From Candidatus Methanomethylophilaceae archaeon (lineage in GTDB: Archaea; Thermoplasmatota; Thermoplasmata; Methanomassiliicoccales; Methanomethylophilaceae), in contig CALUHR010000013.1 of the NCBI GenBank assembly GCA_944320495.1, positions 290,687-354,686 of the forward strand: 64,000 nt of DNA, in the 5' to 3' direction. The notes under the pieces are model-generated. The model did no database searches, was not told where the DNA came from, and saw only the letters and a list, made by a program, of their open reading frames with translations. Position 1 is the stretch's first letter. Every line of letters begins with the position of its first letter. Shown one piece after another: positions 25,945 through 64,000 of this stretch. Both the position numbers and the translations under genes were made by a program.

Positions 25945-27333
25945 TCGGAGGGCCTCGCCGCCGTGCCTCATGAGCTCGAACATGCCGATCCCCGTGACCT
26001 TCCTGAACTCCCTGGTGGCGAGCCACATCATTAGGCCCCCTCCGAAGACCTCCGCCACGAGCAGGCTGTAGAATATTGCGTCCATGGACACGGTGCACGA
26101 GACCATCAGGAACGCCACGATGACCAGATTCCTGATGAGCGACGACACCATGGAGAGCTGGGCGAGGCGCAGCGACTCCAGGATAGACGATCCGATGTCG
26201 ATGAGGCCCATGAACGGTATGAGCACGGCGTATATCCTCAGGACATGGGCGAACTGGGGGCGGAGCTCCGCCATGGACTCGGACTGCGTGAGCGGCACCA
26301 TGGCCCAGTCGGCGAACACGAACAGGACCGCCGCGATGCCCACCATGGCGACCATCGTTATCCTCAGAGAGTAGGCGCAGGCGTCGGCCGCCCTCCTGTG
26401 GTCGTCCTGACCCATCGCGGCCGAGACTATGGGGATGATCGACGACCCGGTGGCCTGGGAGACCACCTCGGCCAGGGACACGAACCTCCAGGGGATGTTG
26501 TAGAGGGCGGCCCCCACGGAACCTCCGCAGATGATGACGAAGATTCTCTGGACCATGGACATGAAGCTTATGAGAGTGGTCTCGACGGTCTTGGGCACCC
26601 CCACGAACATCACGTCCCTGATCATGGCGAGGTCGAACCTGAACCCCCTGAACGACATCCTCAGGTACACCGATCCGCGGGCGAACCACCACAGTCCCAC
26701 GAGCATCGACGCGACGGTGGATATCGAAGTGGCCCAGCCGGCCCCCGCGATGCCCATGTCCAGGACGAACATGAACAGCGGGTCCAGGACGACGTTCATC
26801 ACAGCGGCGACCAGGAGCATGACCGTGCTGCGCCTGGCCGCGCCCTCGGCCCTGAGTATGCCCGCTATCACGCCGTCCAGCACCAGGGGCAGGGTGCAGA
26901 CCACGATGGGCACGATGTAGTCGAGGCACAGGTCCCGGATGTCATCCGCCCCCATCATCGAGATGGACGGGCCCAGCAGGAGGTACATGACCGGCGTGAG
27001 CGCGACCGCCACGACCGCGCTGACGGCCATGGTCTGCGACACGAGGGCGTCGGCCCTCGCCTTGTCGCCCCTGCCGAGGCATCTGGCAATCGACGTCGAC
27101 GCCCCCACGCCTATGCCGGTCCCGATGCCAGACACTATCCAGTACACCGGGGATATGGTGGAGGCCGCGGAGCTCGGGTCCACCCCGAGGAGGGAGCACC
27201 ACGCGGTGTCCGCGAAGCTGTTGATCTGCACCACGAGGAACGACACTATGAGCGGACCGGACATGGCGAGGACGGCCCTCCGGGGGTCGCCGAGCATGAC
27301 CTTCAGGTCCCTCGTGACCTCTGCCTCGCTCAT
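25945..27333 (-). CDS. MATE-family efflux transporter
   Basis: About 12 TM segments, MNVVLDPLFM..MGIAGAGWAT; CGA at 25945-25947 (standard-code end 25933). Confidence 0.9.
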
Positions 27334-57945: not shown

Positions 57946-58031
57946 GTTGAGGCACCCATATCGGGATTTCATTAAAAACATGTCGGACGAGACATGACGC
58001 GAAGCGGTGAAGGATGATGAAAAAGGGAGAA

Positions 58032-61859: not shown

Positions 61860-62087
61860 TCAGAGGTACTTCAGGGCGGTGCCGACGGCCATCACGATGA
61901 CGCATACGATGGCCGCGGAGCCCCAGAACAGGTACTCCTTCCTCTTCTCCGCCTTCTCGCGGGCGATCTCGGCCGCCCTGCATTCCTCGTCGCAGAACTC
62001 CTGACCGAACGGGACGGGGTCCCCGCAGAACTTGCAGTGGGAATGCTCGGGAAGTCTGAGGCCGCCTACCATGCCGAGCCCTATCAT
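61860..62087 (-). CDS. DUF2116-family Zn-ribbon membrane protein
   Basis: PEHSHCKFCG.PVP..QEFCDEEC plus a TM helix. Confidence 0.8.
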   Translation of the reverse strand: MIGLGMVGGLRLPEHSHCKFCGDPVPFGQEFCDEECRAAEIAREKAEKRKEYLFWGSAAIVCVIVMAVGTALKYL

Positions 62088-62170
62088 TCGCTATTAGATA
62101 AAATGTGACTGGTTAGATTATAAGCGGGCGCGGTCCATCCGTCGATGCCGCTCGGCGGCAGGAGATGCGA

Positions 62171-62404
62171 ATGAGGTTCACACTGCTGAACAGGAAGAGC
62201 AACGCGGCCATCAGGATGGACATGGATCCGTCCGATAGGGTCGGGGAGATAATGGAGACCGTATCCGAGGCATGGGGCTGCGGCAACATCGTCCTGAGGG
62301 ACGGCTATTCGCTCCTGGAACCCGACAGTCTCACCGGCAGCTGCATCTCGGAGGGGGATCTCGTGGAGGTGCTCCCGGATCCGTTCCAGCAGCAGACGGT
62401 TTGA
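62171..62404 (+). CDS. Ubiquitin-like (YukD/EsaB-type beta-grasp) small protein
   Basis: Pattern V.EI...V...W....VLR.G...L.P......I.EGD.VEVLPDP; GGAG spacing favours the ATG at 62171; family judged by eye. Confidence 0.55.
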   Translation: MRFTLLNRKSNAAIRMDMDPSDRVGEIMETVSEAWGCGNIVLRDGYSLLEPDSLTGSCISEGDLVEVLPDPFQQQTV

Positions 62405-62432
62405 AATAGGGGGTGGCTCTGGCCGGCGTCGG

Positions 62433-62786
62433 ATGACAGACAGCAGAGGAAGGATGGGCACGAGGGCGGAGGTCCTGTTCGGGGCCAACGCCATGATCTC
62501 GATCGCCGAGGCCGCGGAGCGGTCCCAGGCGCATGGCGGACTAAGAGGCGGATGGGAGTCAGATGCGAACGGTAGGTTCGCCAGGGTCGAAGGGGCCGGT
62601 GTGCCGGAGGTGGGGATGTACTTCCCGTCCGAGGGCACCGAGCCCGACGATTCCATGTGCGACATCCTGCGCTCGGCCATCGGGGAGGGAGTGCTGGTCG
62701 TCATCGATCCGTACGCCGGGGAGTTGGCCGTGTACATCGTCGATGGTGACGGGTGCAGGACGGCCTCGGCGCTGGTCTCAGAATGA
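62433..62786 (+). CDS. Degenerate JAB/MPN-like protein
   Basis: VGMYFPSEG..SMCD and VLVVIDPY resemble VGWYHSHP..S..D and ..ViDP; the Zn-binding His residues are absent. Confidence 0.45.
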   Translation: MTDSRGRMGTRAEVLFGANAMISIAEAAERSQAHGGLRGGWESDANGRFARVEGAGVPEVGMYFPSEGTEPDDSMCDILRSAIGEGVLVVIDPYAGELAVYIVDGDGCRTASALVSE

Positions 62787-62788
62787 GA

Positions 62789-63334
62789 TCGGACCCAGAT
62801 CGCGTGGCGGCGGCGCATGTCGTCCTCGGAGATCTCCTCGCGGGACATTATCTCGCTGACGATGCCGTCGAACAGCAGCAGCGCGGAGTCCTCGAAGACG
62901 GTCCCCAGGGGGGCCACCCTGTGCAGTCCCTCGCCCTCGGGAACGCTCATGACCAGGGACACGTCGGAGACGCGGGTCAGCGGGCTTCCGCTGGTGCCCG
63001 TTATGCAGAATATCTCGGACCCTATGCGACGGGCGATTTCCGCTGTCTGCACAACCGACGACGTCCTGCCGGTGTAGGATATGAGGAGGGTGAGGTCCTC
63101 CTTCCCGATTATGGGGGTGGTCATCTCGCCCACGAAATGCACGTCGAGCCCGAGCTGGACGAGACGCACCGCGAACATCTGGCCCACCAGCCCGGAGCGG
63201 CCGGACCCGTAGACGAAGACCTTGCGATGGCTCAGGATCCCGGAGACTAGCTCCTCCCTGGCGTCGGCGTCGACCGAGCGGACTGCGGTCCTGCAGGTGT
63301 CCAGCAGGGTGTCCAGGTCGTCCAACTCACTCAC
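62789..63334 (-). CDS. hxlB: 6-phospho-3-hexuloisomerase-like SIS protein (181 aa)
   Basis: VYGSGRSGLV, VGEMTTP, PLGTVFE, MRRRHAIWV then CGA at 62789-62791 (standard code runs to 62084). Confidence 0.88.
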
Positions 63335-64000
63335 CGGCGGCAGCGGCCGCCGCTTCTGACTTGCGACGCTCCTTGAGCTCCTTCGCGGCCCTCTTGGTGA
63401 GGATCCTCTCCTGGATGATCCTCATGTACATCGCGTCGTGCTCCAGCAGCGGGGACATCGAGATGACGGTGCAGTCCGGCCTCATCTCGGCCATGGCCTC
63501 GGCGAGGGGCTCGAACTTCAGGTCGCCCTTCTTGATGGGCGTGAGCCTCTTCTCTCCCGCGTCGCCGTACTCCACGCCGGAGAACTCGGTGTGGAGGCCT
63601 CCCTTGGCATAGGGCTCGACGGTCTCGATGAGGTTGATGAAGTCGTCGGGCTCGATGAGCGTCCCGCCCGTGCGGGAGTGGTAGTGGGCGAAGTTGATGA
63701 CCGGCACCGGTCCGCCGACGGCCTCGCAGATGTCGAGGACCTGCTCGAGGGAGCCGAAGACGTCCTGCTGACCGGTGATCTCGATGCCGAGCCTGCACTT
63801 AAGGCCGACGCCGTTCCACCAGTCCATGAGGGCCCCGAGGTTCTCGTAGATGTGTTCGTCCACGTAGTCCTCGGTGCGCTTGCCGTCGTAGATGCCCAGG
63901 TTCGTGACCACGATGTCCCCGTCCAGGGCGTCCAGGATGATGCCGGCGTGCCTTATGCTGTCGATGCAGCTGAAGGCGAGCTCGTTCTCGTCGCCCAGGT
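63327..64000 (-). CDS. Endonuclease IV-like TIM-barrel protein (5' end outside window)
   Basis: EITGQQDVFGS, NFAHYHSR, GEKRLTP, SPLLEHDA. Confidence 0.8.
   Translation of the reverse strand, partial: LGDENELAFSCIDSIRHAGIILDALDGDIVVTNLGIYDGKRTEDYVDEHIYENLGALMDWWNGVGLKCRLGIEITGQQDVFGSLEQVLDICEAVGGPVPVINFAHYHSRTGGTLIEPDDFINLIETVEPYAKGGLHTEFSGVEYGDAGEKRLTPIKKGDLKFEPLAEAMAEMRPDCTVISMSPLLEHDAMYMRIIQERILTKRAAKELKERRKSEAAAAAAGE

Follow-up and report, generated by a model that had tools for sequence, protein, structure and literature searches.

CGA as a probable translation stop at the end of an hxlB-like gene and at about a quarter of gene ends in a Methanomethylophilaceae archaeon

Translation of an hxlB-like gene, whose SIS-type product of 181 residues resembles sugar-phosphate isomerases, appears to end at a CGA codon (62791..62789, minus strand), and CGA appears to act as a stop in this archaeon. 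Judged on sequence comparisons, we put the probability of this reading at roughly 85%. Positions refer to the window, i.e., the whole 64,000-nucleotide stretch of DNA that was analysed. The host belongs to the Methanomassiliicoccales, family Methanomethylophilaceae, and to the genus of Ca. Methanoprimaticola, UBA71 in GTDB. The features concerned are as follows:

62792..63334, minus strand: coding sequence of the hxlB-like SIS protein, 181 codons, GTG start, C-terminus ...RRRHAIWV
62789..62791, minus strand: CGA (flanked as GTC CGA T), the putative hxlB terminator
62084..62788, minus strand: apparent 234-codon extension of hxlB under translation table 11, judged untranslated, ending at TGA 62086..62084
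62433..62786, plus strand: convergent 117-aa gene with a TGA stop at 62784-62786
62171..62404, plus strand: 77-aa gene, kept in 27 of 29 relatives
61860..62087, minus strand: small gene of the DUF2116 zinc-ribbon type (Pfam PF09889, 44.7 bits), kept in 27 relatives
63327..63998, minus strand: TIM-barrel (AP_endonuc_2-like) gene upstream of hxlB (Pfam PF01261, 28.8 bits, short of its cut-off at 31.1)

No standard stop follows the ...RRRHAIWV terminus of hxlB; the minus strand reads ...CAC GCG ATC TGG GTC and then CGA TCT..., and the 181-aa product extends up to V181. Under table 11, the frame continues as a 416-aa ORF (62084..63334) until a TGA at codon 417, the first in-frame standard stop, 234 codons on, and its second in-frame CGA is codon 302, which leaves no backup for hxlB across 120 codons. 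The ORF listing agrees with an earlier note, in which the standard code gave a 416-aa product running antisense across two genes with no backup stop for more than 200 codons, while CGA gave a 181-aa SIS protein ending just past an RH motif and overlapping nothing; the end of the convergent gene at 62786 was likewise confirmed. The apparent extension (62788..62084, minus) is the antisense of two conserved plus-strand genes and a spacer, and the hxlB CGA stands 2 bases from the TGA of the convergent 117-aa gene. The codons of hxlB have a GC3 of 0.895 and include zero internal CGA. Long open frames are ordinary in this genome, which has a GC content of 62%, and 29% of the frames behind true TGA stops stay open for >100 codons. 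The oddity at hxlB is the lack of a standard stop at a conserved C-terminus together with a CGA exactly in the TGA column of its orthologs, not the open antisense frame.

The 117-aa gene (GC3 0.82) has its best codon score in its own frame, and 25 of 29 relatives conserve it (identity 45-61%, the near-identical genome G018 being left out). A Pfam and NCBIfam search of its product returned no match. No family match was obtained for the 77-aa gene either, so that the two ORFs which the earlier note had called 'JAB-like' (117 aa) and 'Ubl' (77 aa) stand as conserved genes, without a match here for those family labels. The listed 'Ubl' ORF opens with ATG-CGA-ATG at 62165 (77-79 aa depending on the start), and its sole CGA is codon 2; if CGA is a stop, the start of this gene must be the ATG at 62171. 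The start of the DUF2116 gene adjoins the end of the apparent hxlB extension. On the other side, the TGA of the TIM-barrel gene and the GTG of hxlB overlap by 8 nt (GTGAGTGA), which indicates an operon.

In the 181-residue product, Pfam SIS (PF01380) matched residues 35-135 with 55 bits (cut-off 25), and the HxlB profile TIGR03127, the best-scoring family, matched residues 9-178 with its positions 3-175 of 178. Its score of 153.7 bits lies below the curated equivalog cut-off of 160, and the protein is accordingly named HxlB-like rather than HxlB, with a putative 6-phospho-3-hexuloisomerase (HxlB/PHI) activity. In the alignment with two solved PHI-type relatives, 1jeo (180 aa) and 1vim (200 aa), these chains stop 3-5 residues past the aligned RH; the earlier note had given HxlB/PHI proteins a length of about 180-190 aa and an end soon after RH. 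A single domain of about 180-200 aa ending shortly past RH is obtained for hxlB only with termination at CGA (181 aa). A Pfam and NCBIfam search of the 234-codon extension yielded no match. The sliding codon-model margin ranged from +0.33 to +0.83 over hxlB codons 1-180 and was ≤0 beyond, and the best-scoring codon frames in the extension region were those of the opposite strand. Between this genome (G000) and G018, synonymous and nonsynonymous differences numbered 29 and 2 before the CGA, and 25 and 24 after it. Purifying selection, the HxlB profile match, and the coding signal all end at the hxlB CGA. The decisive contrast in these substitutions is that of core versus extension only, and frame-specific synonymous sites of the same pair, at 8 vs 5, did not discriminate between the frame of the extension and those of the plus-strand genes.

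The codon at this column was then read in sister genomes, as the earlier note had proposed. All 30 same-genus orthologs end in HAIWV; 25 of them then have TGA and five have CGA. The sequence past this column is not conserved among the CGA-bearing orthologs, and the conserved C-terminal extension that would have spoken against CGA termination was not seen. A further 12 public proteins, from independent clusters, read 'HAIWVR' and then run into unrelated tails, and 'SIS domain-containing proteins' of 245-413 aa are already deposited in NCBI, ENA, and Logan. An exact-sequence look-up in a sequence collection found neither the 416-aa nor the 181-aa product. It could be argued that the standard code holds, with hxlB encoding a 416-aa protein, being a stop-loss pseudogene, or carrying an assembly or sequencing error at the C of the CGA. 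The ORF is indeed uninterrupted under table 11, and gene calling has already put long products of this kind into public databases. However, the extension has neither coding signal nor family match, lies antisense over two conserved genes, and shows relaxed selection; the same CGA occurs in at least five genomes and in the 12 independent public clusters, with unrelated tails; and the same pattern recurs at about 370 other genes. We give this explanation next to no credence.

Termination at CGA, the reading preferred here, is consistent with the pattern across the genome. The 1,478 gene ends called with confidence comprise 1,054 TGA, about 372 CGA, and 52 TAA, and CGA would end about 25% of the genes in this genome as a fourth stop. 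At the 378 sites where CGA lies behind 60 strongly coding codons, coding continues at only 8.7%, compared with 11% (TGA) and 14% (TAA) behind the standard stops and 68-80% behind seven sense codons taken as controls; most of the continuing CGA sites are adjacent genes in the same frame, and CGG keeps the pattern of a sense codon in this test. Across 50 genes ending in CGA, orthologs from other genera have their standard stops within 5 codons in 84%, the corresponding figure for TGA-ended genes being 92%. The CGA result held under the codon-model test, which is stricter than a filter on GC3 only. A GC3-only filter had also brought up TAG as a sense codon (82 ORFs), an artefact that the codon-model test ruled out and that arises because antisense frames that share their third positions with a gene stop most often at TAG; in the codon-model test, 14 of 39 TAG sites continue coding and are Pyl-like, and PylS is present. 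Ortholog column, profile, coding potential, selection, and genome-wide tests all agree with the proposal of the earlier note that CGA ends hxlB.

Within 331,915 gene codons, in-frame internal CGA is near zero, and out-of-frame CGA occurs 29,578 times, which shows that the avoidance is frame specific. This bears on a further explanation, in which C-to-U editing of the mRNA at CGA ends would let the ribosome meet UGA. A single C/U difference separates CGA from UGA, and CGA-to-UGA editing exists in plant organelles. Yet in-frame CGA is avoided in the same genes that tolerate the out-of-frame occurrences, so that selection discriminates by reading frame, to which an editor guided by sequence is blind. 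We know of no mRNA C-to-U editing system in archaea, and we regard editing as very improbable.

For CGA read directly as a stop, the context of the codon is also informative. A T follows CGA at 55% of the 372 CGA gene ends, against a background of 19%, and hxlB has this +4 T as well. The nearest stop of any kind lies at a median of 7-8 codons behind CGA ends and of 14-17 codons behind TGA ends; these nearer backup stops hint at a leakier termination at CGA. The Pelota gene lies within an 858-aa open frame and is itself CGA-ended.

The use of CGA is very low across the whole family. Since self-trained codon models failed on the GC-richest samples (the G000 subsample; weak in G031), the model trained on G000 itself was used instead, together with homology. 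In sampled DNA of the genus members G031 and G008, stop-like CGA occurs at positions matching stops of G000; TGA and CGA interchange at gene ends between genus members, and CGA is used as a sense codon in the outgroup G062. We found no published report of CGA as a stop in this lineage.

This genome does contain a tRNA-Arg(UCG) gene, whose Arg-type features are intact. The 31-39 pair of this tRNA is a mismatch (C.A, A.A, or U.C) in all 33 genus genomes where the gene was found, with pairs 27-43 to 30-40 intact, whereas 31-39 is Watson-Crick in all 27 outgroup genomes, from 15 other genera, with C-G/U-A covariation. The gene was not found in one clade of the genus (G008, G015, G007, and G019). 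The release-factor genes comprise one aRF1 and one Pelota, and a search for a second release factor returned nothing beyond these two. A search of aRF1 for substitutions specific to the genus turned up only A27D, S152C, K161S, F260V, and T280I, none of them within the codon-reading motifs (NIKS, the GTS-loop region, and YxCxxxF). The aRF1 carries a Y-R-C motif, with the Arg aligned to yeast eRF1 L123; standard-code outgroups also have Y-R-C, which makes it at most a pre-adaptation.

A CGA that is unassigned, or 'hungry', would be another way to end these genes, by ribosome stalling and release through Pelota/ABCE1-type rescue or by a frameshift to an out-of-frame stop. Such a codon would suit the family-wide rarity of CGA, the altered or, in one clade, undetected tRNA-Arg(UCG), the unchanged motifs of aRF1, and the enrichment of backup stops behind CGA ends. 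To our knowledge, however, Pelota-type rescue does not hydrolyse peptidyl-tRNA, and stalling followed by rescue would be costly for a quarter of all genes, that of Pelota itself included. The strong +4 U preference also resembles a release-factor context effect, and eukaryotic eRF1 measurably releases at CGA (PMC7379694). We consider the hungry-codon explanation unlikely.

More probably, the single aRF1 outcompetes a weakened tRNA-Arg(UCG) at CGA. In yeast, eRF1 competes with tRNA-Arg for CGA and terminates there, more so in the UGA-biased variants L123R/F/Y (PMC7379694). At least one e/aRF1-family release factor is able to treat CGA as UGA; with yeast eRF1/eRF3, though, CGA is misread or rescued at a low level, in reporters (Wada and Ito 2018, PMC7379694), whereas here CGA would be an evolved terminator of hundreds of genes. 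The process may have started in a family in which CGA was already very rare and in which an Arg at the L123-equivalent position of aRF1 would have predisposed to CGA termination. In the ancestor of the genus, loss of the 31-39 pair of tRNA-Arg(UCG) presumably weakened decoding, so that aRF1 would win at this codon. T-to-C mutations in TGA stops could then have been tolerated, spreading most in a GC-rich subclade that includes this genome. CGA followed by U, as at hxlB, would be favoured for termination, and a few CGA-C sites apparently would still be read as Arg.

In-frame CGA lies within the conserved domains of a few genes, namely at R88 of aRF1, in Rpp29 (10 codons ahead of the TGA), in the middle of the Flavodoxin_4 domain, and at the gmhA-gmhB junction, indicating that CGA is not an absolute stop. 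The efficiency of termination is probably context dependent, since a handful of genes (aRF1, Rpp29, and flavodoxin) seem to need Arg. A C follows at +4 in four of the five sense-like CGAs, and a rule that +4 C means read-through is unproven, as backup stops are no nearer behind CGA-C than behind CGA-T ends. In aRF1, codon 88 is CGA in 45 of 47 distinct genes of the genus, with an invariant preceding U, against one CGA in about 850 codons of 18 other conserved Arg columns; outgroups use AGG, CGC, CGT, AGA, or CGA at position 88. The alignment runs through this CGA in the same frame, and e/aRF1 proteins conserve an Arg at this site (R81 in human). This conserved in-frame CGA suggests autoregulation, in which CGA88 read as Arg would close a self-regulating loop. 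In the clade of G008, G015, G007, and G019, codon 88 is still CGA though tRNA-Arg(UCG) was not found, and the tRNA-competition model leaves this CGA unaccounted for.

Sense-to-stop reassignments are found in organelles, namely AGA/AGG in vertebrate mitochondria (table 2), TCA in Scenedesmus mitochondria (table 22), and TTA in Thraustochytrium mitochondria (table 23). There as here, a former sense codon stands at gene ends and is avoided internally. However, the organelle codes serve tiny genomes of a few dozen genes or fewer, whereas this is a free-living archaeon with about 1,500 genes, about 25% CGA ends, a retained though altered cognate tRNA gene, and a single aRF1. A partial parallel to the proposed loop is bacterial prfB (RF2), which is autoregulated via an in-frame UGA and requires a +1 frameshift. 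The aRF1 gene similarly carries, at a conserved site, the codon on which its product would terminate, but the frame runs straight through CGA (zero-frame, Arg88) with no +1 frameshift, and the regulation is putative.

Other unusual codes differ in more respects. Two archaeal assemblies from hydrothermal vents show CGG-to-Trp reassignment and no CGA in conserved domains, and CGA as a stop was raised there as a possibility only, without gene-end evidence (Melnykov 2026, bioRxiv 10.64898/2026.04.02.715157). Those archaea, of another lineage and habitat, lack tRNA-UCG and have CGG reassigned, whereas in the present genome CGG is sense, tRNA-UCG is kept with a broken 31-39 pair, and the gene-end and ortholog evidence is direct. 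Methanogens also have an ambiguous UAG, read as pyrrolysine or stop through competition between tRNA and aRF1 (PMC12626013). In the same archaeal order, one codon would again have two meanings by such competition; UAG, however, is a stop partly read as an amino acid, while CGA would be an amino-acid codon mostly read as a stop. The tRNAs with 4-bp anticodon stems, i.e., tRNA-Trp of Blastocrithidia and ciliates and those of a bacterial survey (PMC13092985), have lost 27-43 and gained near-cognate reading. They too combine a lost anticodon-stem pair with a changed code, but membership of this class was rejected for tRNA-Arg(UCG), in which 27-43 is paired and the loop-proximal 31-39 is lost, with weaker cognate reading as the suggested effect.

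For the genus as a whole, we lean, with little more than even confidence, towards a four-stop code throughout UBA71, which would be the first sense-to-stop change outside organelles and would combine a weakened tRNA-Arg(UCG), a UGA-biased aRF1, and feedback through CGA88. If this is true, sense codons can also turn into stops in the genome of a cell rather than of an organelle, by a route documented so far only in mitochondria. The genus would also offer a natural competition between tRNA and release factor at one codon, with genetic correlates in the 31-39 mismatch of the tRNA and the in-frame CGA of aRF1. Gene calling with table 11 would give about a quarter of the proteins in these gut methanogens a false C-terminal extension or fusion, and code-inference tools that consider amino acids only could not detect CGA as a stop. 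As the genus is frequent in human and livestock guts and relevant to trimethylamine removal (PMC8727293), correct proteomes would matter for metabolic and metaproteomic work.

The hxlB-like SIS gene of this archaeal genome (G000; 1.77 Mb, 62% GC) is arranged with its neighbors as follows, with positions counted within the window, which spans G000:C13:290687-354686:

63334..62084, minus strand, 416-aa open reading frame under table 11
62791..62789, minus strand, CGA read as the hxlB terminus, then TCT CAT...
62784-62786, plus strand, TGA of a convergent 117-aa gene, two bases from the hxlB CGA
62171-62404, plus strand, small gene of 77 aa
61860-62087, minus strand, DUF2116 gene

Codons 1-181 encode VSELDD...EDDMRRRHAIWV, and an upstream TIM-barrel gene shares 8 nt with hxlB where its stop overlaps the GTG start. 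The earlier note proposed that hxlB stops at the CGA, clear of the convergent gene, instead of running through 416 aa under the standard code with no backup stop for more than 200 codons. The sequence confirms this layout: the CGA directly follows the 181st codon, and the first standard stop in frame lies 234 codons on. A 79-aa plus-strand frame opens ATG-CGA-ATG at 62165-62173; if CGA is a stop, the second ATG (62171) must be the true start of the 77-aa gene.

In these sequence comparisons, the end of hxlB at the CGA is marked by five independent signals. The Pfam SIS match spans residues 35-135, and positions 3-175 of NCBIfam TIGR03127 (HxlB, 178 positions) align to residues 9-178, identically for the 181-aa and 416-aa versions, while the 234-aa tail had no match in Pfam or NCBIfam profile searches. 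Because the TIGR03127 score (153.7 bits) falls just below the curated cut-off of 160, the gene is named HxlB-like. The solved relatives MJ1247 (1jeo, 180 aa) and AF1796 (1vim, 200 aa) terminate 3-5 residues past the aligned RH, in line with the family length that had been expected. GC3 is 0.895 in the core vs 0.68 in the tail, and a codon-usage model trained on G000 and scanned in 30-codon windows gave a positive margin in the hxlB frame in all windows to codon 180, beyond which the margin is zero or negative and the best-scoring frames lie on the opposite strand. Compared with the near-identical genome G018, the core carries 29 synonymous and 2 nonsynonymous changes and the tail 25 and 24, respectively. 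Both convergent genes (117 aa and 77 aa) are kept in 25-27 of 29 relatives.

An ortholog search across 60 relatives yielded 30 same-genus loci, in all of which the protein ends in ...HAIWV. Directly after this ending, 25 loci have TGA and five have CGA (G000, G018, G025, G010, and G009), and the DNA beyond this column is unlike in every genome, so that the proposed reading of the ortholog codon revealed no conserved extension. In the HxlB + aRF1 tree, all CGA forms fall inside one supported subclade (98/94) that also holds three TGA forms, indicating one or two TGA/CGA changes. Querying databases with the 416-aa frame retrieved 12 more clusters of public proteins, 245-413 aa long and derived from related MAGs (P0002-P0013), one being the NCBI entry 'SIS domain-containing protein [Thermoplasmata archaeon]', each with ...RHAIWVR followed by an unrelated tail. 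Gene callers thus appear to have mis-extended hxlB repeatedly, and these SIS proteins would exemplify a systematic mis-annotation in which hxlB is read through its CGA.

Judged by comparison of DNA sequences with gene models built in-house, the source of all the evidence, hxlB is a single instance of a genome-wide CGA rule. Among 378 CGA sites preceded by 60 strongly coding codons, coding goes on in frame at 8.7%, compared with 11% for TGA, 14% for TAA, and 68-80% for seven sense codons. The 1,478 confident gene ends comprise 1,054 TGA, 372 CGA, and 52 TAA, and the distances to the next standard stop are distributed similarly behind CGA and TGA ends. T follows 55% of CGA ends (19% background), and the hxlB context is CGA-T. 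The automatic list recovers 12 of the 15 CGA ends recognized in the window by the sequence-only reading and adds one, at 57961. When 50 CGA-ended genes were compared with their orthologs from other genera, the standard stop of the ortholog fell no more than two codons away in 60% and no more than five away in 84% (83% and 92% for TGA-ended genes), and the outliers examined were spurious antisense ORFs. The standard code, under which the locus would encode a 416-aa protein or reflect a pseudogene or assembly error, is contradicted by the hxlB end signals, the ortholog stops, and the genome-wide CGA pattern. Out-of-frame CGA trinucleotides are abundant (29,578 in 331,915 gene codons), showing that CGA is avoided specifically in the reading frame. 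This rules out artefacts at the DNA level and speaks against frame-blind RNA editing at CGA ends, which is unlikely.

Elsewhere in the genome, a Pelota-like gene (eRF1_3 domain; contig C1, 21949-22227, plus strand) has CGA as its terminal codon and lies within an 858-aa open frame under table 11. A PylS gene is located on contig C9 (67854-68522, minus strand). TAG follows strongly coding sequence at only 39 sites, and coding persists past 14 of them (methyltransferase-like Pyl contexts), so TAG is a rare codon that seems to have two uses.

The next stop of any kind lies a median of 7-8 codons behind CGA ends vs 14-17 behind TGA, which hints at leakier, backed-up termination; hxlB is exceptional, with no stop of any kind until an in-frame CGA 120 codons on. 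In the gene for the RNase P subunit Rpp29 (C4:26948-27346, plus strand), a CGA CCA at about 27317-27319 lies inside the Pfam domain, 10 codons ahead of the TGA, and the tail RPEDRIKKVR is the same in G008; this CGA seems from the alignment to be read as Arg. A Flavodoxin_4 gene has a mid-domain CGA CCC (C8:55685-55687, plus strand), and gmhA (SIS) and gmhB (HAD) are fused in frame via a single CGA (C13:194143-194145, minus strand) after which there is no start codon, with further in-frame CGAs nearby (C13:191935-193671). These latter CGAs also look translated and could represent read-through, pseudogenes, or recently acquired DNA. Given such sites, CGA would be mostly, not exclusively, a stop, and its reading is probably context-dependent; a search for a simple context rule separating stop-like from sense-like CGA established none.

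The aRF1-based loci place the relatives in Methanomassiliicoccales/Methanomethylophilaceae, including Ca. Methanoprimaticola sp. MG2 with 91% aRF1 identity; the genus (GTDB UBA71) comprises methanogens of human and animal guts. In 200-kb samples of two complete genus genomes, stop-like CGA is less frequent than in G000 (11 CGA vs 125 TGA sites in G031, 9 vs 129 in G008), and the CGA sites matchable to G000 genes coincide with G000 stops. In the outgroup G062, CGA is an ordinary rare sense codon, with 17 of 27 sites still coding, and CGA in other genera aligns to Arg.

To our knowledge, sense-to-stop changes are otherwise known in mitochondria only. The literature searched contained no description of CGA serving as a stop codon in Methanomassiliicoccales; the nearest work, a 2026 preprint on two unrelated vent archaea, goes no further than naming this as a possibility (bioRxiv 10.64898/2026.04.02.715157). 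Codetta-type tools are unable to infer stop codons.

One aRF1 and one Pelota were found in G000, with no further release factor, and comparison of the aRF1 NIKS, GTS region, and YxCxxxF with outgroups revealed no genus-specific change. The Y-R-C common to the whole family's aRF1 has its Arg aligned with L123 of yeast eRF1. Yeast eRF1 can compete with tRNA-Arg for CGA and end translation there, and the UGA-biased variants L123R/F/Y raise CGA termination (PMC7379694). The G000 tRNA-Arg anticodons are GCG, CCG, UCU, CCU, and UCG. Its tRNA-Arg(UCG) gene, outside the window (C13:413317-413390; locus L143:1501-1574), bears a mismatch, A31.A39, in the lowest pair of the anticodon stem. The 31-39 pair is mismatched in all 33 genus genomes in which the gene was found (C.A 18, A.A 14, U.C 1), with the remaining four stem pairs co-varying, and Watson-Crick in 27 of 27 genomes from 15 other genera of the family (C-G 20, U-A 7). 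In the basal clade of G008, G015 (both complete), G007, and G019, tRNA-Arg(UCG) was not found by BLAST and two patterns, though aRF1 there keeps CGA at codon 88. Ribosome stalling and rescue at CGA as an unassigned codon is considered improbable. We propose that a UGA-biased aRF1 with a latent ability to read CGA, the great rarity of CGA as a codon, and a weakened tRNA-Arg(UCG) may together have allowed CGA to be captured as a stop.

The only aRF1 gene itself carries an in-frame CGA:

L031:1084-2346, minus strand, aRF1 gene, with CGA codon 88 at G000:C2:86932-86934 (minus strand)

Codon 88 lies within IDSIAA-R-LKTYK at a conserved Arg (human eRF1 R81). Of 47 distinct aRF1 genes in the genus, 45 have CGA here, in every case with a U in front of it (GCU/UCU) and with CUN and then mostly AAA behind it, while the adjacent Ala codons vary freely. 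At 18 other conserved aRF1 Arg columns, there is one CGA in about 850 codons, and outgroup genes have AGG, CGC, CGT, AGA, CGG, or CGA at position 88. If CGA acts as a stop, read-through is required here to make full-length aRF1, and from this conservation pattern it looks like a programmed event autoregulating the release factor. Such read-through would mean negative feedback, analogous to that of bacterial prfB but without a frameshift.
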